Below the pieces are notes generated by a model. That model ran no database searches. It worked only from the letters and a program-made list of their open reading frames with translations, and was not told the DNA's origin. Below, one piece after another: positions 13,648 through 64,000 of a DNA stretch of 64,000 bases. Position 1 is the first letter of the stretch. Every line of letters starts with the position of its first letter. The translations under genes and the position numbers were made by a program. The stretch covers positions 31,000,001-31,064,000 of the forward strand of contig NC_092351.1 of assembly GCF_963676685.1 (NCBI RefSeq), given 5' to 3'. The DNA is from Mytilus edulis (taxonomy: Eukaryota).

Positions 13648-15967
13648 CTCTGTTTTCACCTGAAACAATTAATTATTCTGGATGAGTATTTAAATCACAA
13701 CAACTACTAACGAGAGTTTGAGAGTAAATATAAATGAGACAGTATCTAATATGAAAATATACAGAAAATATACAGAAAATATACATCTGGCTGTTTATCA
13801 TTATTGTCTCGTTCAAAATACATACATGCATGTATTATAAGATTGTCACAGTGGAAAAATGGACAAAAATTGATTTGAGACTTTTCGGACATTTTGTAAA
13901 AGATTTTGTAAAATCACTGTTTTGTTATATTTGCAATATTTCACTAAGGGATTTTGTTATTTTTATTGTGCAAGCTTAAGATTTAAGTCAAGTTTAGAAA
14001 ATTAAGCTAATCTAATTTCATGTTTTAATTTTTTTTTCAATTAGCGACATTTTACTTCAAAATGATATATGAAAACCAAACATTTAATTCCATCAATAAG
14101 TCTGAATGTTCTTTTGTTAATTATTTTCTATGTGTTACTTTTTCTGTAATCCCTTAATTGAATTTTCTTACTCATTTAGAGAAATATTTGTCAAGTCTAT
14201 TCAAGTAGTTTTTGGTCTGTTATATAAACTATGTTGTTATTTTAATGTGGCAGATTGGATTTATTATTACACTGAGCAGTTCCAACTCTGTACAATTGTA
14301 TTCCATGCTGAACTTATTAAATTATACATCGCGCTAACCAGAGTCGTCTTTTGTTACAAGAGCTAGTCCCAGAGTTAGAGTCCGTGCAGACTTGTCATAC
14401 TGTTTATTGTGTGTGTGTGGTTCCAGGCCAACACATTTCCCAGTCACAGATACACCCAGTTTCTGTTTGTGACAAGATCATGCGCTTAGATAAAACCAAG
14501 AAGAAACAAATCAAATGTATCAAAATGATTAAAGCAGTAACCAATGTCTTACGCTAAAGTTAAACAATTAACCTCGTGTTTAAAATTATGAATATTATTC
14601 AATATAATCTTATGATAGATATTCACCAACTTACTTCAATCTTATCTCGTACACTGTATAAATTATGACAATATATGTGTCTGATAATTACAAGTTAGTA
14701 CATACTTCGAGACTTAAACACGAGGAGTTATTTCTAACCGGAATTACGACGGAAAGAAAAGGAAACTAACTACAATAAAATGTTGTTTAATGACAAATGT
14801 ATTCGTCAATCTGTTTAGGATGGTATCATATTGAGGAAACAATTTGATATGATACTTCTAGACATTAAACACGTTTCAGGATAGGGGTCAATTGTATTTA
14901 TCGTGCCACAGTTCCTTATAAATGGCAATTGGAAAGCACTTTGAACAATTATATTTCATATAGTGTTTAGAAATAACTCTTTGTTATTTAAAACATAAAA
15001 CTAGCAGTCAATTTTGTCAAAATAACTTTTAAATTTGTGTTAATGGCTATGCCTGTTGCCCAATCCAATTCAAATTATTTGAATAAAATAATTACTAAAC
15101 TAACACACACAAACACATGTCTATTATATAGTATTTATCAAAGTTACACCCATCATGTTCTTATTGTATGTTTATCTGTAAGAATTTATTTTGATTGTCT
15201 TATTAAGAATACGTACGAAAAGTAGAAATATCAAGCTAGAATATTACACAGAAGGGGCGATGTTGGATATGCAGGACATATAATTATGGGCCAAGAACAT
15301 CAAGCAGAACATATAGAAATGAGACTATTTTGGTGGGGGAAATAATGAATAAATAAATGAAAGCTCAAAATGGCATAAGCTTTAAGAAGACAGATATAAA
15401 GACCCTCTATCCAATATCTCAGATTATCTTCAATGTATATAAAATGGCTTATTCTTTTAAAGATATGATGTCATGTAATAATGTTATTCTTATTTCAGAA
15501 CATACAAATATTCTTATCTGGTCATATAGACACAAAAACACTGGAAATGGAAATTGAAAAATATAAACTTTCAGAATGTCGATGATTCTTATCAGCTGAT
15601 CGTTTGAGAATATATATACTTCGTCAACTTTTAAGTTCATGATTCATCTTCAATAACAAAAACTTAGAAAATCGGTAACCAACGAATGATAATGAATCCA
15701 CAGTATATAAATTTAAAATGCAGATGAAAATATAATGTATATTCCCATTTATTTAAAACGAGCACTCCACATCTTATTTTGAATGCAAACTATTTAAATG
15801 TATTAATCTATACAATGTAATAAAATATGTTTACATTTGTTCAGTATAATTGAATGTATAGAATAGAAAGTACCGAAAACCTTTCACAAAGAAAATATTT
15901 ATAGCAAGCGTAAAGAAGGAAGTTTATATACCAAAAAGTTAAAATGAGCCATACCAGCACTCTTTTG

Positions 15968-39075: not shown

Positions 39076-40104
39076 CAATCCTGGTATCTATGATGTGCCC
39101 AATATTCAGCGCTTCTGTGTTGACTTGAGCTATCATTGACATGTTCATAATTATAAATTAACTGTTAACAAAACTTTGAATTTTTGAAATACTTAAGCTT
39201 TTCTACTTCAGGAATAGATAACCTTAGCTGTATTTGGCAAAACTTTTAGGAATTGTTTATTTTTGATTCGTGCGTCACTGATGAGTCTTTTGTAGACGAA
39301 ACGCGCGTCGTCTGGCGTAAATATAAAATTTCAATCCTTGTATCTACATTGTATGATGAGTTTACTTACAACCACTGGGTCGATGGCACTGTTGATGGAG
39401 ATTGATTCCCCCGAGGGTATCACCAGCCCAATAGTCAGCACTTCTGTGTTGACTTGATTTATCATTGACATGTTCATAATTATAAATTAACTGTTAACAA
39501 AACTCTGAATTTTTGAAAAACTGAGGCTTTTCTACTTTAGGAATAGCTTACCTTAGCTGTATTTGGCAAAACTTTAAGGAATTTTTGGTCCTCGATGATC
39601 TTCAACTTGGTATTTTTTTTGGCCTTTTAAACATGTTCGATTCGAGCGACACTGATGAGTCTTTTGTAGACGAAACGTGCGTCGTCTGGTGTAAATATAA
39701 AATTTCAATCCTGGTATTTATGATTAGTTTCTTTACAAACAACTGGGTCGATGCCACTGCTGGTGGAGATTTATTTCTCCGAGGGTATCACCAGCCTTAA
39801 TAGTCAGCACTTCTGTGTTGATTTGAGTTATCATTGAAATGTTCATAATTATAAATTAGCTGTTAACAAAACTTTGAATTTTTGAAATACTCAGGCTTTT
39901 ATTCTTCAGGAATAGATTACCTAAGCTGTATTTGACAAAACTTTTAGGAATTTTTGGTCCTCAATGCTCTTCAACTTGGTATTTTATTTGGCCTTTAAAT
40001 ATTTTTTATTCGAGCGTCACTGGTGAGTCTTTTGTGGACGAAACGCGCGTCGTCTGGTGTTAATATATTCAATTTTAATCCTGTTATCTATGATGAGTTT
40101 ATTT
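39076..40104 (+). repeat. Tandem non-LTR retrozyme array (about 370-nt units, three hammerhead motifs)
   Basis: Hammerhead motifs at 39272-39318 (intact CUGAUGA), 39646-39692 (intact core, weakened stem I) and 40014-40060 (CUGGUGA); spacings 374 and 368 nt. Confidence 0.88.
39272..39318 (+). ncRNA. Type I hammerhead ribozyme
   Basis: GCGUCA-CUGAUGA-GUCU UUUGU AGAC-GAAA-CGCGCGUCG-UC-UGGCGU. Confidence 0.85.
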
Positions 40105-41751
40105 ATAAAATTATAATTTCAAATAAATTAACAAAAGACAGCTTGTGTTTATCTTATAGTACGAAACAAGTTATGTATATCTGTCAAAGGAAAAATACGC
40201 CCACTTATCCGAATTTAGAGAAAATATCATTTTACTAAGAAAGTAGCACGTGAAGGTATATGTTTTTTACAACTTGTTTGATTGAATTCGGTAAAAATAG
40301 CCTATATCCAAATTTTCATCAAAATATCATCATGGAATCGAAACTGTATGTTGTGGCCTTAATGCGAACTGTACGTAATGAACTACGTACCCTACAGATC
40401 TTTTTAAAATTTTACATATGGAATCTGCTTGTAAAACTAAACTAGAAAATAAAATAATAAAGGGAGTAACCATCTAATCCAAAAAAATCGCAAGATATCT
40501 TTGTATTTTTAATATTCTATATTTTGGTTGATCCACACATTTCTTTTTAAAATTGATACAGTATTCAAAATTGATCGACGAGTCTGTTGATGCCAAACAA
40601 TCCTTAACAACTGTACTTCTTTTCAAGCTATTCGCTGTGGACGTTTTGTGTTTAGCAAGGGACATATTCGGCAACACTAATGTCGACACAACTAATACGT
40701 TAGAACTCTATTATACTTTGTTGTTCTCGCCTGCTCAGACGATCCGTAATTTTCGTATCATAGCTCTGAGTCGAGAGCAGGCATTATCGGCGATTTCATA
40801 ATGTATGAGAAGAAGTAATCAGCAACGTCCACGTGTGTGAGGAGACATTATCACGCTAAATTTCGTAAAACTGTCTTCGAAAGGGAGAACAAGACAACTT
40901 ATAGAACCATAAACAGATAATTTGGTTTACTTCGTATATATATCGTAAATATCAGCTGCTCGACACAATGTGAAGCGTTTTAGCTCGTTTACTGCGCTCA
41001 ATCGACAAAAGAGTCAAGATTATGGCTCGCAGCTGATATTTTACGATATCAATGTGTAGAAAATCCCAATAATCTATCGTATAGGGTCGTAATAAAATCG
41101 TGAATGTGCATCACCCACTTTCCTAATAAATGAAAATGCGCAAGTGTAATAAATTGATACAAATATAAACTGACTGTGCTGACAAAAATAGAGGCATCCC
41201 CGTAACAGTGAGGACAACCGAAATACTTATGTTTGTAATAATACTGAATCATGTATTTTTAACTTGTTTGTTATCTATACCAATTATTTTACGTTCTCTC
41301 AGTATGTCAGAGACCTTCCGGTGGGAAATTTAGATACTAAAAAGTTCATGCAGTGCAAGAAACGAAGAAAAAGATTTTTTAAGTAGTGAACATTAAAATC
41401 AACAAACTAGGGTAAGTCCTCTGCTGCAAGTGATTCGTATTATTTGATGTATGCGTTAAGAATCTTTGGTGGCCTCCCGGTTTGGATGTCTATAACAAGT
41501 ATGATGTGATAATCCAGCGTTGCAAAGTATTGTTCACATAATCTGACCTAGTCAATTTATTAAAACATACACCTAATATATGATACTTTAAGATGATGTC
41601 ATTTGTTTTTGAAGCAGTTCAGTGTTTCTGTGGTTCGGTTGTTTTCCTCTCAACGTTTATATGTTTCTAACAGTTTTGGTTTGTGACCCGAATTTGTTTT
41701 CGGTCAATCGACTTTTGAACAGCTGTATACTACTGTCGCCTTTTTATGGCA

Positions 41752-42092
41752 TAGTTATCAAAGGTACCAGGATTATAATTTAGTACGCCAGACGCGCGTT
41801 TCGTCTACATAAGACTCATCAGTGACGCTCAAATCAAAAATATTTATAAACCCAAACAAGTACAAAGTTGAAGAGCATTGAGGATCCAAAATTCCTAAAA
41901 GTTGTGCCAAATACGGCTAAAGTAATCTATGCCTGGCATAAGAAAATCCTTAGTTTTTCAAAAAAATTCAAAGTTTTGTATACAGGAAATTTATAAAAAT
42001 GACCACATTATTGATATTCCTGTCAACCCCGAAGTGTTGACTACTGGGCTGGTGATACCCTCGGGGACGAAACGTTCACCAGCAGTGGCATC
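41752..42092 (-). repeat. Retrozyme monomer (about 350-nt subfamily) with an intact hammerhead at 41785-41828
   Basis: Minus strand reads GCGUCA-CUGAUGA-GUCU UAUGU AGAC-GAAA-C GCGC G-UC-UGGCGU. Confidence 0.88.
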
Positions 42093-42694: not shown

Positions 42695-43106
42695 TTATGT
42701 AGACGAAACGCGTGTCTGGCGTATCAAATTATAATCCTGGTACCTTTGATAACTATTTACACCACTGGGTCGATGCCACTGCTGGTGGACGTTTCGTCCC
42801 CACGGGTATCACCAGCCCAGTAGTCAGCACTTCGGTGTTGACATGAATATCAATTATGGGGTCATTTTTGTAAATTTCCTGTTACAAAACTTTGAATTTT
42901 TCAAAAACCTAAGGATTTTCTTATTCCAGGAATAGATTACCTGAGCCGTATTTGGCAACTCTTTGGAAATTTTGGGTCCTCATTGCTCTTCAACTTTGTA
43001 CTTGTTTGGCTTTATAAATATTTTGATCTGAGCGTCACTGATGAGTCTTATGTAGACGAAACGTGCGTCTGGCGTATTAAATTATAATCCTGGTACCTTT
43101 GATAAC
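42695..43106 (+). repeat. Retrozyme copy: 353-nt unit between a 5'-truncated hammerhead and an intact one (43032-43075)
   Basis: GTAGACGAAACGCGTGTCTGGCGT ends at 42722 and GCGTCACTGATGAGTCTTATGTAGACGAAACGTGCGTCTGGCGT ends at 43075. Confidence 0.88.
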
Positions 43107-43200
43107 CATTTGTTCATATTTTTTTTAAAGCCGTTTTACTTGTATTGTGTACTTTCTTCTGCGTGCCTAAAACATAAAGTAACATCAAAATAGTACTGAA

Positions 43201-48409: not shown

Positions 48410-51063
48410 CATGTAAAAAGTTTAAAAGAAGTCTTTCTTCATAGCGGTTTTCGAAATAATAGGCAAAAATTGCATTTAACCGCTATGATTTCGTTTAAGT
48501 CATGTCAGCTAGCTTCATTGGCAGGCAGGCTCGACAAATATAAAAAATAATCTATACCTTTATAATGAAGAAAAGGCAACAGTAGTAAATCGCTGTTCAA
48601 AAGTCAAGTCGATTGAGAGAAAACAAATCCTTGTAACAAACTAAAACCGAGTGAAACACATCAACTATAAAAGGATTATATGTCCAAGTTTAGTTAAATT
48701 TGGTCAAGTAAGAAGATAATATTTTTAAATGTTAACGCACGACGAAAGCTAAGTGACAATTAAAAGTCACTTGGCCTTTCGACCAGGTGAACTAAAAAAC
48801 CCAATAAACAACTTATAAAAAGTAATATTTATTAAAATAAAAGAAAAGCTTAGTTTATTTCCATAACATTAACATAAAGCTATTAAAACACATTCTTTAC
48901 AAAAGGCTGTATAGTATCAAGATATAATGATGGATGAACAATTTTGATTTCTTAAACATGCAAAAGTAAAATAAAAAAAATACTGAACTCCGTGGAAATT
49001 TCAAAACGGAAATCCCCATTAAATACCAGAGAAAACACTTATTTATCTTGTACTTTCTGCCAAAATGAATCAAATGTATTGATCAGTTCAAAAGGGGTTA
49101 TTCTAAAAACAGCACACAACATTTTTTTTGTATTTTTGTTAAAGGGTAAGAGCTAATGTTTTGTCAAAATTTTATGGAGAGAAAACGAGTCAATTTTATT
49201 TAGTCAAGGTGTTTAGTATCTCCTTAACATGCTTAAGAAGACAAAAATATAACAAACTGCAATTTTACAGTTAACATAGTCAGTTTATAAACGTTCGGGT
49301 TATTGTCTCATGAGCATGTTTTTTTTATTTTTTTTATTTAGTTTTGAGTAAATGAGTATAACATTTAAAGTAAGTAAGTTAAAACTTATATTAATAAATA
49401 TTTTCATATCAAAATGTGATATATTTAAGTATTAAATATACAATGAATTTAAAAGGCATTAACATTTGTATTTATATACATTGTAAAATAATATTTGATT
49501 GAAATGTAACAGTTACACACAAAACAATGTTAACCGTATATTTCGGTATTGATTGACTGCAAGACCAGCATTCATTCTTTCAACCTCTAAAACTGTTTGC
49601 AAATACAGTATCACATCGCATAATGTCATGTTTACGGACACTGCACAACACGTGTAGTTTCCGTAACAATATATTTTTTGTACTCACTTGATTTTTATAA
49701 AAAATGCCAAATCTACAGAGAAAAATATTTTTTTTTAACTGTGGCTATTTTAACTACCAGGAAATAATACAAATTTTGAAGAAAAAAAAATTTTCTACTT
49801 CGAAATTTATGAATATCTTATATCAATCATATTATCAAATTAACTATAAAATTATATTTTAGAATTGCTACATTTGCGTATGATCTTTAATACATTTATG
49901 AGGGAAAAACTTGCACTACACTTCAAAAGTCCATAAAAAATCAGCACTACGCTTACAAATCCACATCTCACATGTAAGAGTTCACTACTCTTTGACTCTC
50001 TTTGTCAGATATTTGGAAGCCTCTAGTTTTATCCATGTAGTGCCAATAAAATATTTTGCCCGCTTTACCCTACTTTTCTTTTCCTCATTTGATAAAATAA
50101 AAATTATGAAGTTGGTTTTGAAAATCTTATAAAATACTGGTGATTATATTATAGTTTTTCAAAGTAACAGTTCCAACTTTTCAATGTTTGAAAAATCTAG
50201 AGAGATTCATTTTCCGCCAGATTTTAAATTGCTTATAATAATACCAAAATCAACGAAACTGACCCTTCTTTTGTGTTTTTTTCATACACTACCAATTTAT
50301 AACAGTCTTTTAAAACGCCCGTTATTTTGAAACAAAGAAGCAAACATCCCTAAATTGATAACTTAGCTCTAAAAAATAAATATGTTTTGCGGAACCCTGT
50401 GCCTCCTCTAGTATAACTGTAGTCAGAGTAAAAGAAAAATGTTGACATAAAAAAGTGAGTCCGTTTATCATTAAAATACAGAATAAAAAAAAATGTTTGG
50501 GTGCAATTCTCTCTTTCCAAAAATACTGGAAATGATTTTTTTTTATTTTACTTTAGAAATTTATTTTCTTATAATAAACAAGTATTTGCTGTAGCTTCAT
50601 AAAATTCTGTGAATGTTGAACGAAGTAATTGGTGTTTAAAAAATCTATAACCAAAGACTCGGCATAAATATTGACGTAACCGATGCCGACTACATGATCG
50701 ACAATCGCTATGTCTCACTTTTGTGACACTAATGTCGCTGGCTCGACTAAAATAGTATCAATTTAAATATGTATCGATTAATACTTAAATACGTAATACT
50801 AGATATACAAATTATAATCATTTTTCACGTTATAATGTACGTAAATTGTCCTGTCCAATGTTGTTAATGGGAAAGGACGCTATTTGGATTACTTATCTCT
50901 CTCAGTCTCCTTAACTGTTTACGTCAAGTACATGATTACCTACAATGTATTCAAAACCAATTTTTACTTGTTATTCGTTTCATACTTTATGAAGCAATAC
51001 TGATATGCGAATTATAAGTTTACCACGCATTGTTCACAGATTTGATTTCATTCAGTTTTTTTG

Positions 51064-54000
51064 TTATAAACTGTTTTTCGCATCCTCAGCTGTTACATCA
51101 TTCCAGTTTTCTGGCAATTCTGGTACTTTTGTGTTGCTTTTTTTCGAAATTTCATTTTTAAATGTTTTGAAATACCACATCCAGTATTTAGAAGGCTTAT
51201 AAATTGGCGTAATCTCCCAATCTGGAAACTTTGTTCTGTAATGTTTGTATTTATGGGTTTTGTTTGAGTCTGATAATATAAAATCCTTTCGACTTTGATG
51301 AATTAAATGGTTACATATATCAGTAACTAGCTCCCCACTGCCATTCTCCCATGCATATTCACCTACGCCTTGTGGACGATGTTGTTTACAACTGTGCTTT
51401 AATGAATCTAAGTGATTGTCATTGTATTCACAGGGTTCGCTACAAAAAGGACAGGTAGCACAACACCCCCAAAGTCTTTCAAATATAGAAGTGTATGGCT
51501 CTTTTTTCCATCGAATAGTTTCTTGTGTGGTATCAGTCACTATTTTCAATAGGCTTACTTTTGTTGAAGAAATCTCCTTAAGAACAGTTCTTCTAAAGTT
51601 TTCAATATCAGTAACATTTCTTTTCCCCACGTGTTTAAGTTTTTCCTTTGTAATCGGCAATAATTTTGAACTTGTAATGAACTCTTCAATCCACGCAGAT
51701 ATCCGATCACCGAACTTTCCTTTTATTTTATCAGTTGCGTTGTTTACAGAACTTATCACGTCCTCTATTGCGTTATCTACAATGAATTTACTTAATAATT
51801 TATAGTTCATGACTTTTTGCCCGTCCCTTTCAAATAAACATTTGTTTGTGTAGTTGAGAAGCCAAATTTCAACAAAAGAAGCAGGAGAAGTAATGTACAC
51901 ACTAAAATGGTCAAAACTGTTCTTGTCGATCAGATCTTTCATCACCGATTTAATTAAATTATATTTTGAATATTCAAATGATTTCCAAATTTCGGCCTCC
52001 ACTTTACTAGGTAAAATCTCGTATATTTGCTCCAACACACTAGATTTGATTGCCTTCTGAAAAAAATTCCCTGCTATAACGTCTTCAGTTTTCTTTTGAA
52101 CGAGATCCACAAACAATTTCAGGGCTGTTTCTTTATATTCCTCCAGTTTTATTCGTGGATTATGCTTTTGGTCATATTGTCTATTAATGTCTATAAATTC
52201 TTTGGTAGAGTAAGCTGCAATTTTTGTCAGTATCATGGCTTTATATTGTGCTTTTAATCGGAATTGATGATCATTGTCTTTATGGTCATTATGCTGAGTA
52301 ATTTCTGACTCAACCATTTTCATTATGTCACTCATAAAGACTACATTGAATTCCACGTCTTTAAAACGTAGCTTTTTCAAATAGGTCTCAATCTTTAAAA
52401 ATAACTTGTCAGTAAAATCCACAGTTTGATTGATGCATACCGCAGGCTTTTCTAAATTCATGCATCCTGTCAGCAAACTCTTCTTAATACTTATATGACT
52501 GTCCAAATGTATATCATTAAATACAACAAGACCATACAAGTTTGACATTTGTATGCAATCGTTAATTGTGAGATCTTCTAATTCTTTGTAAAAATTACCG
52601 TGTCCATAAATATTATTTCGAACTAATCTTTTTATTTCATCAAAAACCTCATCAGGCTCTTTGGCAGCATCTACTGGTGTCGTAGAGCATTTGGCAATCC
52701 ACGATAACCATCCTTCATCAAATCGAGCATGCAATATATTTTCAGAGACTGCAGTTTCATTGCTATCATTGAACTCTTCAGCTAGTGTAGTGGCATAGCT
52801 GTTTATTTCATCCTCGCATTTTTGTATTGCCTTTTCACATTCGGTGAATTGTTTTATCTCATTTTGAATCAACTCTATTTCCCTGCCTGACCTATCAGAA
52901 AGCGGTTTCATGGATGTCTGCAGCTTCAAGGAATATCCTTGTTTCCATTTCAACATTATATTCTTCAATGTATGTCTTTCAATGAATTCATCAAATTCGT
53001 TTTCTGCTTTTTCGAATTCATTGGTAAGAAATTCAGGTAAATTGTTTCGCACAGTCGCTATCAACCCGTCAAATTCTGATTCGCTTTTACATTTGAGAAG
53101 AAAACATCTCTTTTCCCGAACAAAGTTGTACAATTTCGATTCTAATCCCCAGTACAATTCTTGGTAATATTTATCTAATTTAGTAAATGCTTTAGCTTCA
53201 AGGTTATTTTTAAAGCTAAAAGCAAAATCCTCCGTTAGAATTCCATTCCAAATGTCTTCTATTTTTGATGCGGTGTCTTTGAGTGAAAAGTACGCTTGGC
53301 GCTTTCGTGCTATGTCATATATAATTGTCTCCCTAATCGTTGTTATATGTGCGCTGTAAGATGGACTAATCCGTGTAACTGGCTGTTCACCAGTAGAAAA
53401 ATTAGGCAAATACCACACGTACTTCTTATCAAAATCAATAACCTGATTAAAATAATTTATATCGGAGATATCGAGTTGATCTGCTGCTTCCGCTGTCATT
53501 TCATCTAGAGTGTTTATCATGTGTTGTATATTGTATTCCAAAGCACTATCGATGCCTCCTTCAGTCTTCACATTCTGGTGTATAAAAACACATGACTGTT
53601 TTAAGTTTAAACTATCACTCGCTGTTTTCATTTTCAAAAGTGCATGAACTACCATTTGCAGTACTTCTTTCATTTCGCCCTGTGATTCACCGTTAATGTT
53701 AACAATATTTATATCCGCTATGCCCATGATAAATGTTGCAAATTCGTTGTCATGCTGGTAGTTCTCGTGACCTAGTTCTGGTGCTCGCAGACCTTCAGTA
53801 TCAATAACTATAATGAATTCAAAATCAAGTTTTTCGTCATGGACAGGTATCAGCTGCATAAATGCTCCTTTTGTAACTCTTCCATGTCCAACAGGAAACT
53901 GGAGTCCAAACATGGTGTTTAGTAATGTCGACTTTCCTGAACTCTGTATTCCTACTACTGATACAACTAAACATTTCCTGTCGCAAATTAATTCTGCTAC

Positions 54001-57000
54001 CTCGTTCAAAACTGCTTTAACCCATACAATTGGTACATGTATAAGATCGCCATTCATCACTTCAAATTGTACTCCTCCTAAAAGAAGTTTAGCTGGTATG
54101 CAAGGGAAGTGTTTCACTAGATTCTTGGTTTCAACAGAGACTCGTGATTCTTGGTCTGCAGTTGCTTCATAAACTTGTCCCATTTCCCGAATAAAATGCT
54201 CAAATCCCAATTGTCCTGCAAGAAAGTCTAATTCATCATTGTGTACATTCGCCTTAAAAGCTTCAACTTCATTTGAATTACTCTGTTTTGCAGCCTTTAA
54301 CTTTTCTATACTTTTTATATATTTAGCATGACAAACAGACATGTTCTCCCGTGTAAGCTTTTCTAGATAAACTTTTAGCCAAAGGGCAAAGTTAATCAAT
54401 TCTTCTTCATCAAATTGAAGGTAATTGAGAACAGTTTCTAAAAATAAATGCATCAAAGGGTGCAGAATAGGTAACCTCTTCACTTGTTCCATTCGCAAAG
54501 ATGAAATTGCTTGCTTTATTTCTACTTTGTGCTTTGGGGATTTGTATTCAGAAGGTTTATATAACCTTTTCATATTCTTACTTAACAAATTCAAAATATC
54601 CCCCTGCATTGGAAGTACATCACGTTTGATACTAAAGGTAGTACTAAAACTGTCAAGCAATTCTTTTATTTTCCTCGTAACTCTCTGTCCTCGTTGACTA
54701 AAATCATTTTGCAAAACTATTTTTGATTCTCCTAATATAACTGTCAGACTTTTGGTTGGCACCTTACTAAATAAATCCTGAAATTTGAAATCAATATCAT
54801 TCTTTATATCAGCTGATTTTCTTTCTTGTCCATCCATCGAAATTAATCCAAATTTGGTCTTCTTATGGTCAATTGATTTCTCTTTATATTTGTCAGTGAT
54901 TTGTTTAACATTTTCTTTTGATCTCTTTTGTGCATCTATCATCAAAGCAACAGTTGATTTTGATGAATAAAATGTTTGAAGCAATTTCTGTGTTTCGTCA
55001 CTTTCAAGCGATTCGATAGTAATAAAAACCACTACACCGGAAGATAACAGAGATAATATATTTAACTGTTCTTTAAAACAAGTACCATCACCTCGTAAGT
55101 TCAGTATCATTGTTCTTTTCTCACAATTCCTTCCCTTTTCACTTTTCAGATATGGATTAAAAAAGGTAGCCTCAATTAGACCCTCGCCTATTGTTCTTTT
55201 GGAACGCCCAAATGGTGAACAGTAGTTTAAAAACACATCATGATTTTCGTTTGAAATTATATCATTAATGATTTTAGATTTTGAAACCTTTGGACAGCCA
55301 ACTCGGATAAAAGATAAAATGTTGCATGGACAGTCAGCTGCTGGAATTTGTTTGTTTCCCGACGTAGATATGAAAACAGAGTTGAAAAAGCTTACGGACG
55401 GAGCCGTTAAATATTCGTCGGGTAACACTAGTGGTACAGCTAATCTGCATGTATACATTTTTGAAGCAAGCGCCTGCTTTAAAGTCTCTGATGAACATAA
55501 AAACAGCGCGACCATCAAGTCCAAAGCATTCAAATTTTCAAATAAGTTGTCATTTTCATTTAACGTCGAAACATTATCATCTTCTTCAAAATCATCAAAG
55601 ATATCAAAATCATCCGAAGCTTTACGCTTATTTTCGTTTTGGAATTCTTGTACATGTTCCTCTAGAATTTTATATATAGAAGAATGCTGTGTCATTATTT
55701 TCTGTAACAAAAACCACAACAGATTTTGTTTCTTTTTATTAGTTGTTCTTTCATCAATTGTCACAGAATCAAGCACATTAACTGTTGATGGCATCCGCAT
55801 TTCGGTAAGAAAATTCTTAACTTTGTCTTGAACAGTTTTCCGAGATGATTTGGTAATTGGGATATCTCCCTTTTGGCCACTTTCGTTCTGTTTAATGATA
55901 AACTTTGGAAGTGAATACATTTTACGGTTTGTATGTGTTCCATTAATGAACGGTAATAGATCATCTTGAAGCTGAAGCCAGTTGTAGGGAGACTTCTCAG
56001 TATTTACGCCAATGGCCGATTTAATATCGTTTTCTAACACTGGTTCCAATGCATGGACGCATTTGATGAAGATTTTTTCGAATGATTTAGATTTGTTCCT
56101 TGTTATATTTTTCACGATGAAGTCTATAAGACATGCTTGATCTTGGACTTTAGATTTTTTTGGTAAGTTGTTAAATTCATGAATTATTTGTTCTGATTCC
56201 GCAATGAATGTTTTTAAATCTGATTCAGAAAGAAGTTGTGGAAATCCACATGTTTCATCAAAACGTAAGCGTGAGAGAATAGACATAAGAATGACAAATT
56301 CACGAACATTTTTTGATTTGAATTCTATTAATATTCGGTGGCATACAGTTGTCATTTCACTAGTGATGTAAAGTTCAGCTGTTTGTTGGCTCCTATGCCG
56401 TTCCATCGTATCAATGTCTTCTATTTCTGGAAGGAATTTCGTCTTCAACACAGACATAAACGTATTTATATCTTCTATGCTTTCAGTAGATAAGGCACTT
56501 GGCAGATCTTGGAACTTTGCATTCACTTTAGCAATCCATAACATCAACGTTGGTCTGTCTTTCAAGAAAACATACTTCAAATGACTTAATAATAAAGAAA
56601 TTTCGTGTTGCATCTTAGCGCATTGCATTTGATCCTGTAATTCATCAGAAAATGCAACCTGTTCAAAGAAGTGTTGTACCTTAACATTTGATTCTACTAA
56701 ACTTTTGAAAAATCCATCGTCTTTAGTAAGGTCGAATAATCTATCTATTGATTTACAAAGTGTTGGCAAAATGGAACTAAAGTCTGTTAATTCAAACGTG
56801 TCAATGCAGCTTTCAAATATTTCCATGTTCCACGCGCATTGCATAAAATCAGCTAAATCAAATACATTATAAAAGTCAGTTTTATGATTCTTAAGTACTT
56901 CCCAAATCCCAATGAATTCACCTCTTGAAATTAGCGACCAAGTTCCATTTTCTGTAGTCAATCTCTGAACCCATTTTCCATAATCAGTCTCATCATGTGG

Positions 57001-58395
57001 TCCTCCTATGGGATTAATGTTTAGCTGCACTTTTGACAATTCTTCCTCCGTATGATTTTTTACAATACTGCTGTTACCTGAGAGATACTTTCCTGATACA
57101 CCAATGCCAATAGCTGGTCCCGGCCCTGTATAACCCATGCTGGTAAATCCATCCAAGGAATCGTTTACTAATTCCTTTCTGGAATTATTTGAAGATTTAA
57201 TCGAAGAAGTATAAGAAGCTTTCCATTTAAAAACTCCACCAAAGTGCAGTATTCCCATGTTAATGTGACTACCATAATTTTGAAAGAACCTTTTGCATTG
57301 AGACAGACTTTTCATACAGATCGCATTACCCTGTAATCCAGATTCAATGGTTTGTAAGGTTTTAATAGCATTTGATATTAAATGAATATTTTCTATCTTA
57401 AATTCATAAGATTTGACTGGCACGAATGCATATTTTTCTCTTGACTGATAAAATTCTTCTGAACTGGTGGTGTTAGTATCGTCGATGTTCTTCATTGATG
57501 TGAAAGATCCTTGTAATTTCATGCTAAAAATTGGAAACCCAATATGAGCAAATAACCTTGCATTTTTGCCAGTTGTTTGCAAAGACCTCTGAAATGTATC
57601 ACTCTTCTCTCTAGACGAAAATTCAACAAACTGAACTTCCTGTTTCATTGATGGTCCCTGGAATGTTACATCACCGACTAAATCGATGACTATACCCTTC
57701 ATTTCTGTGATTGAATCTATACATTGATTTAAATGGATCCCCCTTAAGGCACAACTACTTGATGAATGACTTAAAACTTCTCTATCAGTTAAATGTGTCG
57801 TTTTTACGTCCCTACTACTGTGTATAGGTTGTAAATTTTTAAGTTTCGTGTCTAAATCCAGATCATGTCGGGAAGTTTTCCAAGATTCACCAGGTTCTAA
57901 TGCTGACGTCAGGGAACTGGCTGTATTATGGAAATCGTCCTTAAAATTATTGTTATCAGGTTGAAACTCATCTGATACTTCTTTTGCAGTTCTCTTCGGA
58001 GCAGCATTGTCGCTCTTGTCTTTTCCAAAATTGTCTTTTATAATTTGTTTCAAAGCTTCATTATCCAAATCATTGCGTATACTTGATTGAAGTTTTTTCA
58101 AATGACTGTCATTAAGATATTTTAGCTGTATGGTATTGGTTAAGCCAAGCTTTCTTTCAAATACTTCTGACCAATACTGATGATCTAGTCCATACTCATC
58201 CTTAAGTCTATTTTGCAACTTCAGTTTGTCAGCTTTCAGTTCGGTTTCTTGACTTGTTTCATGTGTTTTATTGTCATGCAATCCTCCTTTTGAGTGTTTC
58301 GACTCGCTATTTTTGTCATCAACTGCGACAGTCTCTGTGTTTGTGGCTTGTAACATATTTGAGGAAGGGTTTTGGCTGGTTTGTTGTGATGCCAT
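51064..58395 (-). CDS. GVIN1: Interferon-induced very large GTPase 1-like (GVIN/VLIG), 2443 aa, single coding exon
   Basis: VLIG-type GTPase motifs GIQSSGKSTLLNTMFG (G1), DTEGL (G3) and HQNV. GVIN-like N-terminus (YW..KLGL..LKYL) and C-terminal GCCATCPFCSEPC..H..HRPQG. Splice acceptor (ttttcag) 146 nt upstream of the ATG, with the exon starting at 58541. Confidence 0.93.
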   Translation of the reverse strand: MASQQTSQNPSSNMLQATNTETVAVDDKNSESKHSKGGLHDNKTHETSQETELKADKLKLQNRLKDEYGLDHQYWSEVFERKLGLTNTIQLKYLNDSHLKKLQSSIRNDLDNEALKQIIKDNFGKDKSDNAAPKRTAKEVSDEFQPDNNNFKDDFHNTASSLTSALEPGESWKTSRHDLDLDTKLKNLQPIHSSRDVKTTHLTDREVLSHSSSSCALRGIHLNQCIDSITEMKGIVIDLVGDVTFQGPSMKQEVQFVEFSSREKSDTFQRSLQTTGKNARLFAHIGFPIFSMKLQGSFTSMKNIDDTNTTSSEEFYQSREKYAFVPVKSYEFKIENIHLISNAIKTLQTIESGLQGNAICMKSLSQCKRFFQNYGSHINMGILHFGGVFKWKASYTSSIKSSNNSRKELVNDSLDGFTSMGYTGPGPAIGIGVSGKYLSGNSSIVKNHTEEELSKVQLNINPIGGPHDETDYGKWVQRLTTENGTWSLISRGEFIGIWEVLKNHKTDFYNVFDLADFMQCAWNMEIFESCIDTFELTDFSSILPTLCKSIDRLFDLTKDDGFFKSLVESNVKVQHFFEQVAFSDELQDQMQCAKMQHEISLLLSHLKYVFLKDRPTLMLWIAKVNAKFQDLPSALSTESIEDINTFMSVLKTKFLPEIEDIDTMERHRSQQTAELYITSEMTTVCHRILIEFKSKNVREFVILMSILSRLRFDETCGFPQLLSESDLKTFIAESEQIIHEFNNLPKKSKVQDQACLIDFIVKNITRNKSKSFEKIFIKCVHALEPVLENDIKSAIGVNTEKSPYNWLQLQDDLLPFINGTHTNRKMYSLPKFIIKQNESGQKGDIPITKSSRKTVQDKVKNFLTEMRMPSTVNVLDSVTIDERTTNKKKQNLLWFLLQKIMTQHSSIYKILEEHVQEFQNENKRKASDDFDIFDDFEEDDNVSTLNENDNLFENLNALDLMVALFLCSSETLKQALASKMYTCRLAVPLVLPDEYLTAPSVSFFNSVFISTSGNKQIPAADCPCNILSFIRVGCPKVSKSKIINDIISNENHDVFLNYCSPFGRSKRTIGEGLIEATFFNPYLKSEKGRNCEKRTMILNLRGDGTCFKEQLNILSLLSSGVVVFITIESLESDETQKLLQTFYSSKSTVALMIDAQKRSKENVKQITDKYKEKSIDHKKTKFGLISMDGQERKSADIKNDIDFKFQDLFSKVPTKSLTVILGESKIVLQNDFSQRGQRVTRKIKELLDSFSTTFSIKRDVLPMQGDILNLLSKNMKRLYKPSEYKSPKHKVEIKQAISSLRMEQVKRLPILHPLMHLFLETVLNYLQFDEEELINFALWLKVYLEKLTRENMSVCHAKYIKSIEKLKAAKQSNSNEVEAFKANVHNDELDFLAGQLGFEHFIREMGQVYEATADQESRVSVETKNLVKHFPCIPAKLLLGGVQFEVMNGDLIHVPIVWVKAVLNEVAELICDRKCLVVSVVGIQSSGKSTLLNTMFGLQFPVGHGRVTKGAFMQLIPVHDEKLDFEFIIVIDTEGLRAPELGHENYQHDNEFATFIMGIADINIVNINGESQGEMKEVLQMVVHALLKMKTASDSLNLKQSCVFIHQNVKTEGGIDSALEYNIQHMINTLDEMTAEAADQLDISDINYFNQVIDFDKKYVWYLPNFSTGEQPVTRISPSYSAHITTIRETIIYDIARKRQAYFSLKDTASKIEDIWNGILTEDFAFSFKNNLEAKAFTKLDKYYQELYWGLESKLYNFVREKRCFLLKCKSESEFDGLIATVRNNLPEFLTNEFEKAENEFDEFIERHTLKNIMLKWKQGYSLKLQTSMKPLSDRSGREIELIQNEIKQFTECEKAIQKCEDEINSYATTLAEEFNDSNETAVSENILHARFDEGWLSWIAKCSTTPVDAAKEPDEVFDEIKRLVRNNIYGHGNFYKELEDLTINDCIQMSNLYGLVVFNDIHLDSHISIKKSLLTGCMNLEKPAVCINQTVDFTDKLFLKIETYLKKLRFKDVEFNVVFMSDIMKMVESEITQHNDHKDNDHQFRLKAQYKAMILTKIAAYSTKEFIDINRQYDQKHNPRIKLEEYKETALKLFVDLVQKKTEDVIAGNFFQKAIKSSVLEQIYEILPSKVEAEIWKSFEYSKYNLIKSVMKDLIDKNSFDHFSVYITSPASFVEIWLLNYTNKCLFERDGQKVMNYKLLSKFIVDNAIEDVISSVNNATDKIKGKFGDRISAWIEEFITSSKLLPITKEKLKHVGKRNVTDIENFRRTVLKEISSTKVSLLKIVTDTTQETIRWKKEPYTSIFERLWGCCATCPFCSEPCEYNDNHLDSLKHSCKQHRPQGVGEYAWENGSGELVTDICNHLIHQSRKDFILSDSNKTHKYKHYRTKFPDWEITPIYKPSKYWMWYFKTFKNEISKKSNTKVPELPENWNDVTAEDAKNSL

Positions 58396-59074
58396 ATTCA
58401 GGTTTGTGATTTTATTGTTCTATTTAAGTTATATTAAGGTCGATATTGTTATTACGTGGTACAAAATTAATGTCTCCTTGATCTCCATTGTAGTTCCCAT
58501 TATCCATCATCTCTTACTATCTTTCATATCATTTGGGTGCTCTGAAAACAAAAGTTTGAGAAAATCAGGAAAATGACAGCTCAGTAACAATTGATACGAA
58601 AACAACACATTACATGTATATAAATTCTTTTAAATTCTTATAATACGTACATATTTGTAATGTAATTATATACATAAACTCAACATATATACCAGGACTA
58701 AATTTTGTATATATGCCAGACGCGCGTTTCGTCTACAAAAGACTTTTAAGTGACGCCCGAATCCAAAAAAGTTAAAAATGCCAAATAAAGTACGAAGCTG
58801 AAGAGTATTGAGGACCAAAATTCCAAAAAGTTTTGCCAAATACAGTTAAGGTAATCTATGCATGAAGAAGAACAGCCTTAGTATTTCAAAAGTTCTAAAT
58901 TTTCGAACAGTAAATTTATAAATATAACCATATCAATGATAACTCATGTCAGTACAAAAGTGCTGACTACTGGACTGGTGATACCCTCGGGGAAATAAAT
59001 CTCCACCAGCAGTGGCATCGACCCAGTGGTAGTAAATAAACTCATCATAGATACCACGACTAAATTTTGTATAT

Positions 59075-59118
59075 ACGCCAGACGCGCGTTTCGTCTACAA
59101 AAGACTCTTCAGTGACGC
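59075..59118 (-). ncRNA. Type I hammerhead ribozyme (intact CUGAAGA core)
   Basis: GCGUCA-CUGAAGA-GUCU UUUGU AGAC-GAAA-C GCGC G-UC-UGGCGU. Confidence 0.85.
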
Positions 59119-60161
59119 TCGAATCCAAAAAAGATTAAAATGCCAAATAAAGTACGAAGCTGAAGAGTATTGAGGACCAAAATTCCAAAAAGTTTTGCTA
59201 AATACAGCTAAGGTAATCTATGCCTGAGGTAGAACAGCCTTAGTATTTCAAAAATTCTAAGTTTTGTAAACAGTAAATTTATAAATATAACCATATCAAT
59301 GATAACTCATGTCAGTACAAAGGTTCTGACTACTGGGCTGGTGATACCCTCGGGGAAAAAAATCTCCACCAGCAGTGGCATCGACCCAGTGGTAGTAAAT
59401 AAACTCATCATAGATACCAGGACTAAATTTTGTATATATGCCAGACGCGCGTTTCGTCTACAAAAGACTTTTCAGTGACGCCCGAATCCAAAAAAGTAAA
59501 AAATGCCAAATAAAGTACGAAGCTGAAGAGTATTGAGGACCAAAATTCCAAAAAGTTTTGCCAAATACAGTTAAGGTAATCTATGCATGAAGAAGAACAG
59601 CCTTAGTATTTCAAAAGTTCTAAATTTTCGAACAGTAAATTTATAAATATAACCATATCAATGATAACTCATGTCAGTACAAAAGTGCTGACTACTGGAC
59701 TGGTGATACCCTCGGGGAAATAAATCTCCACCAGCAGTGGCATCGACCCAGTGGTAGTAAATAAACTCATCATAGATACCACGACTAAATTTTGTATATA
59801 CCCCAGACGCGCGTTTCGTCTACAAAAGACTCTTCAGTGACGCTCGAATCCAAAAAAGATTAAAATGCCAAATAAAGTACGAAGCTGAAGAGTATTGAGG
59901 ACCAAAATTCCAAAAAGTTTTGCCAAATACAGCTAAGGTAATCTATGCCTGAGGTAGAACAGCCTTAGTATTTCAAAATTCTAAGTTTTGTAAACAGTAA
60001 ATTTATAAATATAACCATATCAATGATAACTCATGTCAGTACAAAGGTTCTGACTACTGGACTGGTGATACCCTCGGGGAAATAAATCTCCACCAGCAGT
60101 GGCATCGACCCAGTGGTAGTAAATAAACTCATCATAGATACCAGGACTAAATTTTGTATAT

Positions 60162-60205
60162 ACGCCAGACGCGCGTTTCGTCTACAAAAGACTCTTCAGT
60201 GACGC
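60162..60205 (-). ncRNA. Type I hammerhead ribozyme (intact CUGAAGA core)
   Basis: Same sequence as 59075-59118. Confidence 0.85.
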
Positions 60206-60961
60206 TCGAATCCAAAAAAGTAAAAAATGCCAAATAAAGTACGAAGCTGAAGAGTATTGAGGACCAAAATTCCAAAAAGTTTTGAAAATACAGCTAAGGT
60301 TATCTATGCTTGAGGTAGAACAGTCTTAGTATTTCAAAATTTCAAAATTTTGTAAACAGTAAATTTATAAATATAACCATATCAATGATAACTCATGTCA
60401 GTACAAAAGTGCTGACTACTGGGCTGGTGATACATATTATCATCCTTATTACGATGATAATCGCTAGCTATGCTCAAAGTCCCATATCGCTCAAGTTTTA
60501 AAAAATACTTTTATCACGTCTGTAATCGTTGCTGTCAGTATAAAAGTGAAAAATCGGCTGCAAAAATTGAGTCAGATGCAAATGTTTGATCTTGAAAATT
60601 ATCTTCATGTCATTTTACATAACAATCTCTGAACATATTAAGTCAGTCGGAAATTTGTTATCCCATACTGCTTGTAATATGTGTAATTATGAAATCCCTC
60701 CCTAAAAAAAAAGATATATAATAAAGGAACAGTGTTCAAATGTCCTCAACGTTGTAATATTTTATCTTTTCAAGGTAAAGAGTCAATCTTTTAAAAAAAT
60801 GTGGTTCTTTAAAATTTATTTTCATTAATGTATTTGAGAAATAAAGGCCAAGCTGCAAATACGGTGTGATTTCCATCATAACATATATTTCCCAAGGACA
60901 TTCCTCTTTAATAAATGGGAAATATGTCCATGGGACATAGATGGTGCTCCCGATTGCATAT

Positions 60962-62984
60962 AAAAACCAGATGCTCCGCAGGGCCCAGCTTTATACGGCC
61001 GCGGAGGTTGAACCCTGAACAGTTGGGGCAAGTATGGACACAACATTCAAGCTGGATTCAGCTCTAAATTTTGATTGTGATTAAATAGTTGACACATCAT
61101 AGGTTTCTGACACAGAATGAATGTGGTCTAATGAACTTAAAAACTTTTGTTTTGCCTTTAAGCAATTCACTATGCTGTTGAATATTAATCCTCTCAAATA
61201 AATTGAAGAAATTTTCTTTTTATTTATGAAATCTGAAATGAGAAAAATTGACACACCCCCCAATTTTTTTTTCACAATCCCCTTTCCCTTATTCTAAAAC
61301 TGATCTCAATTCAAATTTCTAACGGTCCCTAGCAATAACTACTCATTTAAATACATCATAAAATATTAAAATGTAAAAAAACTGCTTGTTATCACTGAAT
61401 GGTAAAGATTGTTTTAATTTATCAGTTGGTAGTAAAAGTGAATATACATTGTCTATTGTATAAACCAATGATTTAAGTTGATTCAACTACTATTCTGGAC
61501 AAAGAAAGATAACTCTAGTTGAAATTTCTTGCTATTGCGCAATATTGTACAATTAGATATTTCTTGCTATTGCGCAATACTGTGCAATTGAAAATACTTC
61601 CCATTGCACAAAAATCGTGCAATTGAAGATTTCTTGCTATTGCGCAATACTGTGCAATTGAAAATTTCTTGCTATTAGACAATACTGTGCAATTGAAGAT
61701 TTCTTGCTATTACTGAATACTGTGCAATTGAAAATTTCTTGCTATTGCACAATACTTAATATAATAATTTTGGATCCTGATTTGCACCAACTTGAAAACT
61801 GGGACCATAATCAAAAACCTAAGTACATTTTTAGATTCAGCATATCAAAGAGGCCCAAGAATCCAATTTTTGTTAAAATCAAACTTAGTTTAATTTTGGA
61901 CCCTTTTGACGTTAATGTAGACCAATTTGAAAACGGGACCAAAAATTAAGAATCTACATACACAGTTAGATTTGGCATATCAAAGAACCCAAATCATTCA
62001 ATTTTTAATGAAATCAAACAAAGTTTAATTTTGGACCCTGATTTGGACCAACTTGAAAACTGGGCCAATAATCAAAAATCTAAGTACATTTTTAGATTCA
62101 GCATATCAAAGAACCCCAATCATTCAATTTTTGTTAAAATCAAACTAAGTTTAAATTTGGACCCTTTGGACCTTTATGTAGACCAATTTGAAAACGGGAC
62201 CAAAAATTAAGAATCTACATACACAGTTAGATTCGGCATAACAAAGAACCCATATTATTCAATTTTTGACGAAATCAAACAAAGTTAAATTTTGGACCCT
62301 TTGGGCCCCTAATTCCTAAACTGTTGGGACCAAAACTCCTACAATCAATCCCAACCTTCCTTATATGGTCATAAACCTTGTGTTCTAATTTCATAAATTT
62401 CTATTTACTTATACTAAAGTTATGGTGCGAAAACCAAGAAAATGCTTATTTGGGCCCCCTTTTGGACCCTTATTCCTAAACTGTTCGGACCTCAACTCCC
62501 AAAATCAATCCCAACTTCCTTTTGTGGTTATAAACCTTGTGTTTAAATTTCATTGATTTCTATTTACTTATACTAAAGTTATTGTGCGAAAACCAAGAAT
62601 AATGCTTATTTGGGCCCTTTTTTGGCCCCTAATTCCTAAACTGTTGGAACCAAAACTCCAAAAATCAATCCCAACCTTCCGTTTGTGGTCATAAACCTTG
62701 TGTCAAAATTTCATGGATTTCTATTTACTTAAACTAAAGTTATAGTGCGAAAACAAAGAAAATGCTTATTTGGGCCCTTTTTGGTCCCTAATTACTAAAA
62801 TGTTGGAACCAAAACTCCAAAAACCAATCCCAACCTTCCTTTTGTGGTTATAAACCTTAGGTTGAAATTTCATAGATTTCTATTCACTTTTACTAAAGTT
62901 GGAGTGCGAAAACTTAAAGTATTCGGACGACGACGACGCCAACGTGATACCAATATACGACCAAAAAATTTTTTCGTATAAAAA
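60962..62984 (-). mobile_element. Helentron-type HINE with internal tandem-repeat arrays
   Basis: Subterminal TATACG(A/G)CC motifs at both ends, A-runs at the termini, and a (GAC)n microsatellite near 62925. Internal tandem repeats of about 35 nt (61525-61755), about 230 nt composite (61770-62300) and about 153 nt (62300-62920). Confidence 0.8.
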
Positions 62985-63310
62985 GTTGTAAAGAACAACA
63001 CTGAAGAAAGGTAGAGACGCTATCCAAACTACTTGTTCTGAGTTTTGTGGTAATCAGTTATGTGCATATGTCTCATAACATTTGGTTAAGGCTAAATTAT
63101 GTTAGAGAACAGGAACAAATACATGGGATATGTATGTGTCAATAGGACACAGATGATGCCCAAACTTGCATTTATTGTCATAAAAGAAGATAACTTTAGA
63201 ACGGTAAAAGTAAAACTACCCTAGTCGTACTTGATCTTCGTCTTGTTGTTATTAGCATTGTGTATAAGTTCCATAAAATTTGCTTGAGAAGCAAATTCAA
63301 ATTAGAAAAC

Positions 63311-64000
63311 AACCAGATGCTCCACAGGGCGCAGCTTTATACGACCACAGAGGTCGAACCTTACACAGTTGGGGCAAGTATGGACACAACATTCAAGCTT
63401 GACACAGCTCTGAATTTGGAATGTGATTAAATAATTGACACAGCATTGGTTTCTGAAACAGAATGAATGTGGTCTAATAAATTTTGGATTGATTCAGCAT
63501 ATCAAAGAATCCCAACAAAGTTCAATTTTGGACCCTTTTGACCTCAATGTGGACCAATTTCATAACAGGGCACAACAATCAAAAATCTAAATACTCGGTT
63601 AGATTAATCATACCAAAGAACCCCATACATTCAATTTTTGTTGAAATCAAACTAAGTTAAATTTTCGACCCAAATTTGGACTAACTTGAAAACTGGGCCC
63701 ATAATCAAAAATCTAAATACATGTTTAAATTCAGCATTTCAATGAACCCCAAGAATTCATTTTTTTTATTAAAAACAAACTAAGTTTTATTTTGGACCCT
63801 TTGGACCATAATGTAGACCAATTTGAAAACGGGACCCAACATTAAAAATCTAAATACACCGTTAGATTCGGCATATCAAAGATAATAATAATTATTAATA
63901 ATTTTATTTTTGATGAAATCAAACAAGGTTTAATTTTGGACCATTTGGACCTCATGTGGACCAATTTAAAAAACGGGGACCAAATTTCAACCAGGTGCTC
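63311..64000 (-). mobile_element. Further copy or copies of the same HINE family, running off the window
   Basis: AACCAGATGCTCCACAGGGCGCAGCTTTATACGACCACAG at 63311. The terminal motif AACCAGGTGCTC restarts at the last bases of the window. Confidence 0.75.

Follow-up and report, generated by a model that had tools for sequence, protein, structure and literature searches.

A haplotype-specific retrozyme array in the 5'-UTR intron of a large GTPase gene of Mytilus edulis, probably carried as a passenger

The GTPase gene and its 5'-UTR intron

The window analysed here, meaning the whole stretch of 64,000 nt of Mytilus edulis DNA (contig NC_092351.1, positions 31,000,001 to 31,064,000), carries a very large GTPase frame on its minus strand and, upstream of the splice acceptor of this frame, a tandem array of retrozyme units (Table 1). 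Extended coordinates beyond the window follow the same count, with the contig position equal to 31,000,000 plus the position given. The predicted protein matched the domain families PF25683 (E = 4e-98) and PF25496 (E = 5e-45). Proteins of the GVIN/VLIG-1 type are typically about 2,400 aa in size, and the mussel frame agrees with this in length, in its single exon and in its URGCP-like GTPase domain. Vertebrate GVIN1/VLIG-1 is likewise described, in the available text of a preprint (bioRxiv 10.1101/2025.03.24.645074), as a very large GTPase with one uninterrupted exon and URGCP-type domains. It is by this likeness to vertebrate GVIN1 only that the mussel gene may be assigned an immune role, and no paper on a mussel GVIN was found in a literature search that missed most subscription journals. 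A DNA search of this genome for a paralog or haplotig of the 5' region of the GTPase returned only the region itself.

Transcript evidence revealed that the acceptor is used in RNA. A single contig of run X1, 9,468 nt long, covers the whole frame. Over 8,542 nt, X1 and this genome differ by 7 letters (0.08%), and X1 was taken as RNA, its GT-AG joints being those of spliced RNA. RNA contigs stop at 58541/58542 in three of the four runs compared over 50000-58690, and a contig of run X4 continues past 58541 for 244 further letters, the first 30 of which have a single exact genome match, 8.9 kb upstream. Moreover, two small contigs of X1 join 58541 to exons ending at extended positions 67408 and 91138, both with GT donors. 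At least two further exons thus lie upstream, at distances of 8.9 and 32.6 kb, and because these are spliced to 58541 the array is intronic, in an intron of 8,866 or 32,596 nt. The preliminary description had treated the array as probably intronic provided that the acceptor was real, and both the acceptor and the intronic position are confirmed by these joints; a transcription start between acceptor and array, which would have spoken against that description, is ruled out by the two upstream exons. With regard to the 5' UTR itself, its part within the coding exon (58396-58541) contains several upstream ATGs. In this genome the donor at which X4 splices exon 2 (31067397-31067408) has AT rather than GT after it, and X1, which is of the same haplotype class as the genome, either splices from a GT donor 10 nt farther upstream or leaves exon 2 out; this looks like a haplotype-specific loss of the exon 2 donor with cryptic rescue in the 5' UTR.

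Table 1. Coordinates of the GTPase gene, the retrozyme array and its hammerhead motifs in the window.
Feature	Position	Strand	Basis and remarks
Single-exon 2,443-aa ORF with URGCP and URGCP-like GTPase domains	51064..58395	-	GVIN/VLIG-type name inferred from size and domains
Polypyrimidine tract and acceptor AG; exon start 58541	58542..58560	-	RNA contig ends, X1 spliced joints
5'-UTR intron, 3' part, holding the array	58542..64000	-	Extends past the window to 67407 (exon 2 donor) or 91137 (exon 1 donor)
Non-LTR retrozyme array, 4.9 x 362 nt	58674..60433	-	Repeat and hammerhead motif calls, unit comparison
Type I hammerhead 1	60162..60205	-	Core CUGAAGA complete, U7A; cut after 60168; 33.6 bits; 20.2 kcal/mol to catalytic fold (predicted)
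Hammerhead 2	59800..59843	-	Core complete, U7A, one stem I mismatch; cut after 59806; 29.0 bits; 26.0 kcal/mol (predicted)
Hammerhead 3	59438..59481	-	Core broken, CUGAAAA (G8A; G8 lost); cut site after 59444; 28.5 bits
Hammerhead 4	59075..59118	-	Core complete, U7A; cut after 59081, 539 nt before acceptor; 33.6 bits; 21.1 kcal/mol (predicted)
Hammerhead 5	58713..58756	-	Core broken, CUUAAAA (G5U, G8A); cut site after 58719; nearest to acceptor; 20.1 bits
Left 7-nt target-site duplication copy	58670..58676		Overlaps element end by microhomology; single in X19
Right 7-nt target-site duplication copy	60430..60436		Single in X19

Structure of the retrozyme array

Tandem Repeats Finder resolved the array with a period of 362 nt and 94% matches. 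It lies on the same strand as the GTPase and ends 132 nt before the acceptor, whose AG is at 58543-58542, in good agreement with the distance of about 130 nt described earlier. The first unit is 5'-truncated, and the 3' end of the array is ~45 nt beyond the last cut site. The units are of two types, ~5% apart, which alternate as A-B-A-B, and a two-unit block is present twice, with 6 substitutions and 1 gap in 724 nt between the copies. The GC content of the array is 0.34-0.37, no frame of at least 120 aa runs across it, and a PDB sequence search gave no match.

Most of the letters that set the B-type units apart are private. A mixed template was considered for the ~5% difference between neighbouring units and set aside, as decay in place fits equally well given that most B-type letters are private. 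No source or sister array of units with an A at position 7 of the hammerhead core (U7A) was found among 15 other U7A loci of the same loop type, two U7A-bearing arrays and three plain arrays, the best match to any copy compared being 94.8%. In addition, the antisense strand of each unit has two AATAAA signals, whereas the sense strand lacks them (counted over 59055-59416); judged from sequence, antisense intronic retrozyme copies could thereby cause early polyadenylation.

Hammerhead motifs and their predicted activity

Five type I hammerhead-like motifs were detected in the array, all on the minus strand (Table 1). They align over the full length of the Rfam model Hammerhead_1 (RF00163), with matching core, stem II and CGCGCG stem III, but all score below its gathering score of 34 (20.1-33.6 bits), and Rfam at the gathering threshold returned zero matches across the window. 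The core CUGANGA / GAAA / NUH together with three stems is present in three of the five units, one of them with a stem I mismatch, and absent in the other two. In all five units U7 is replaced by A, a change seen in only 73 of the 11,995 intact cores genome-wide. Position 7 of minimal hammerheads accepts any base. In the folding model, however, the cost of reaching the catalytic fold is 20.2-26.0 kcal/mol for the three complete cores, compared with a median of 12.1 kcal/mol (range 8.3-24.0) for 21 natural U7 copies, because an A at position 7 is predicted to permit a competing hairpin; these values are thermodynamic predictions, and the model disfavours the catalytic fold in ordinary copies too. 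By minimum free energy, the five motifs folded no more stably than shuffled sequences (z -0.17 to 0.89), and folding therefore lends no independent support to a ribozyme structure. All five ribozymes are thus mutated or predicted to misfold, and self-cleavage of all five units is not confirmed. Intron 1 of the gene contains a second sense retrozyme piece (31086077-31086228), whose complete U7 core has a predicted folding cost of 17.4 kcal/mol.

As for the RNA products, there is only one adjacent pair of complete cores, and a monomer circle could arise from this pair (60168/59806) only. According to the available text of Cervera and de la Pena 2020 (PMC7229834), a mussel retrozyme repeat cleaves in vitro at ~0.1/min, more slowly than that of a coral, and a blocked ribozyme is predicted for some of the mussel circles. 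A palindromic stem III may permit cleavage as dimers, that is, as double hammerheads (PMC7761336, in the part available).

Filled and empty alleles

The array is a polymorphic, haplotype-specific insertion, as evidenced by run X19, which bears another species label and is ~2% different here. One X19 contig covers 58252-58675 and continues without interruption at 60436, in the right flank, and the 7 letters that are doubled at 58670 and 60430 stand once in this empty allele. The empty site was seen in one of two runs of the other haplotype class that were compared across it, the contig of X20 stopping, uninformatively, at 58609, and the listed pieces of X2 do not reach the acceptor. Run X16 spans the left junction in one piece and without differences; it may be the source of the genome itself. 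Of 20 runs that contain the region, 3 share at least 95% of its words and the other 17 share 53-60%, and the genome's haplotype looks like a minority class among the runs listed. Since the distance of 0.08% between X1 and the genome is a tenth of the divergence between the duplicated dimers, X1 probably carries the array.

Retrozymes across the genome and at related genes

Across the 1.37 Gb of the genome, 11,995 exact copies of the intact core were counted (6,131 on the plus and 5,864 on the minus strand; control 0), and a DNA search for the family yielded 4,648 candidates. This frequency of one core per 114 kb gives 0.14 sense cores expected in a span of 32.6 kb, and 16 family loci (9 minus, 7 plus) lie within 164 kb around the gene; the placement of the array is not beyond chance. 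Arrays of the same subfamily elsewhere contain 9, 5 and 4 cores. Four other genomic copies have 3' ends 28-51 nt beyond the cut site and variable 5' ends, and this combination, also found in the array, fits target-primed reverse transcription with 5' truncation. A cluster of older retrozyme copies in both orientations was also noted in the window (39097-40105, 41751-42092 and 42695-43110), including a 369-nt array in which a 3-letter duplication at the cut site breaks stem I.

URGCP-GTPase matches number 21 in the genome. None of 19 related GTPase loci has an array of at least three units in the ~8 kb upstream, whereas 11 of the 19 have some retrozyme piece in either orientation, and the flanks of these insertions are unrelated. 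The upstream pieces comprise 16 sense and 5 antisense (p = 0.027), or 8 against 2 when counted by gene (p = 0.11), in stretches of ~8 kb each whose introns are putative. Sense copies with complete cores stand upstream of the open frame at the URGCP-GTPase loci L029, L031, L033 and L040, 341 nt before the frame at L029 and as a dimer 1.6-2.0 kb upstream at L031.

For comparison, 32 dynein and myosin gene bodies (1,322,039 nt) were surveyed, consisting of 19 of 21 dynein spans (one partial) and 13 of 22 myosin spans; the spans were set by pairing domain matches and include exons, with no exon-by-exon check. Of the 14 retrozyme loci in these spans, 4 are sense and 10 antisense (p = 0.18); exact cores number 0, where 11.6 would be expected from the genome mean. 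The general sense bias of intronic retrozymes suggested by the 16:5 ratio is thus not borne out by the 4:10 ratio. The depletion in conserved genes in both orientations points to some general cost of intronic copies, which leaves room for a small cost here, and suggests that such copies are often not harmless. No paper on the orientation of retrozymes in mussel host introns was found in a search that missed most subscription journals. Around the window, retrozyme loci occur about once per 10 kb, compared with the 14 in 1.32 Mb of these gene bodies.

Comparison with known systems

By its features rather than by letter-by-letter identity, the array belongs to the published mussel non-LTR retrozymes, as the preliminary description had proposed. 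Its tandem units fall within the 150-450 bp of metazoan non-LTR retrozymes and bear type I hammerheads; it is non-coding with a GC content below 50%, belongs to a dispersed high-copy family, and is a mobile insertion with a target duplication longer than 4 bp. In particular, the available text on the non-LTR retrozymes of Mytilus galloprovincialis, of which ~5,000 copies were counted in the assembly used there, describes the same 350-390 bp tandem units, type I hammerheads with a short stem III, GC under 50% (36-37% here), thousands of copies without LTR or ORF, and target duplications longer than 4 bp (7 nt here), and family-level circular RNAs have been published for these elements (PMC7229834). 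The present array differs in its rare U7A in 5/5 units and its two dead cores, and the host-intron place and the presence or absence of copies are not treated in the available part of that source.

The CPEB3 ribozyme (PMC10274809, in part) and the amniote intronic hammerheads (PMC7761336, in part) are likewise sense intronic self-cleaving motifs that could race splicing, and the array shares with CPEB3 the sense position in an intron of an expressed gene. Those motifs, however, are single, species-conserved and tuned, whereas the array belongs to a mobile element of high copy number and is both polymorphic and decaying; conservation at the orthologous site and purifying selection on the core are contradicted by the empty X19 allele, the two broken cores out of five and the absence of arrays at all 19 related loci. 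According to the available text of PMC10274809, CPEB3, a natural intronic ribozyme, lowers its host mRNA, and slow intronic ribozymes left splicing unaffected (quoting Fong 2009). Non-engineered intronic hammerheads of the Schistosoma type caused less than 3-fold loss in zebrafish, against 20-fold for an engineered one (PMC11856399).

A tolerated passenger and its alternatives

The array is probably a haplotype-specific retrozyme insertion in the 5'-UTR intron that is tolerated as a passenger, its ribozymes being predicted to cut too little to matter. A 5'-truncated copy would have been inserted by target-primed reverse transcription, for which a Penelope-like helper has been proposed (PMC7229834, in part); the founder unit, already U7A, would then have expanded, and a two-unit block would later have been duplicated in place. 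The array would be transcribed as intron with the gene and, mostly uncut, removed with the lariat, because U7A favours the competing hairpin and splicing outpaces slow intronic ribozymes. What is directly observed comprises the array, its strand, its intron position, the empty allele, the spliced mRNA in a near-identical haplotype and the two broken cores; on the other side, the misfolding is a prediction, contig depths are no measure of expression, and the array genotype of X1 is deduced. Furthermore, a toy model with three cut sites gave 23-84% of transcripts cut before splicing at 0.1/min and 3-17% at 0.01/min, and cutting of 23-84% would not be neutral, which counts against a passenger, as do the depletion of the family in conserved gene bodies and the 16:5 sense lean of pieces at related GTPase loci. 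A modest cut in GTPase mRNA by the array is conceivable, though less probable than a tolerated passenger.

Such a cut would make the array a cis-acting damping allele, in which the three complete hammerheads cleave some pre-mRNA before splicing, alone or as double hammerheads via the palindromic stem III, and so lower the GTPase mRNA of the haplotype while freeing a little 362-nt monomer (60167-59806) or 725-nt dimer. This would be an accident with an effect, with no evolved coupling. We regard it as rather unlikely: three complete sense cores within 1.7 kb of the acceptor, the toy kinetics at 0.1/min, the CPEB3 precedent (PMC10274809, in part) and the depletion of the family in conserved genes speak for it, whereas the predicted U7A misfold, the spliced mRNA present in X1, the dead unit nearest the acceptor and the single adjacent complete-core pair with its stem I mismatch speak against it. 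A bolder form, to which we give a low probability, is a segregating self-cleaving intron allele that measurably lowers GTPase mRNA and frees array-marked RNA whenever the gene is on; the array would then survive beside the acceptor only because the founder U7A throttled its ribozymes. If so, some retrozyme circles would stem from read-through of host introns, and persistence in introns would favour attenuated hammerheads genome-wide. The preliminary description went further and coupled a viroid-like RNA to an immune effector gene, with GTPase induction freeing viroid-like circles in the immune response. The sense orientation, the intron position, the closeness to the acceptor, the 16:5 sense lean upstream of related GTPases and the L029 copy would suit such co-option, but it is very improbable and the coupling finds no support, given an array that is absent from the X19 haplotype and from all 19 related loci (where insertions have unrelated flanks), cores that are decayed rather than conserved and otherwise predicted to misfold, spliced mRNA, at most one monomer source against ~12,000 other cores, and 32 unrelated genes that show no sense bias (4:10, p = 0.18); that the gene is induced in immunity is itself a supposition by analogy. 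Finally, a collapsed or misplaced repeat in the assembly might be suspected, as none of the listed contigs spans the whole array, yet such an artefact is scarcely credible in view of the undisturbed left junction in X16 (with the reservation that X16 may be the genome's source), the target-site duplication that matches the empty allele, the private unit letters and the lack of any other compared copy above 94.8%.

Regarded as a passenger, the array represents a published element with thousands of copies, and its presence demonstrates that an expressed gene can carry a retrozyme array in sense and close to a splice acceptor. The pair of filled and empty alleles, together with letters private to the array (U7A and others) that tell its RNA from that of the other 12,000 copies, constitutes a natural experiment. 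It opens the questions of whether host-gene read-through feeds retrozyme circles, for which the available part of PMC7229834 names no promoter, and whether a natural minimal intronic hammerhead costs host mRNA.

Other features of the region

In addition to the array, the same intron contains a composite repeat (60970-62960) with internal tandem units of 35, 135 and 159 nt, which is repeated in locus L009 and occurs several times in this intron. Upstream of the gene's first exon, an intact minus-strand frame of 1,331 codons (31098528-31102520) looks by eye like an LTR-retrotransposon polyprotein. Elsewhere in the window, an intronless minus-strand frame (11335-13668) encodes a secreted-looking protein of 770 aa with a weak F5/8 type C match, the C-terminal region of which has, by eye, the look of a glycoside hydrolase.
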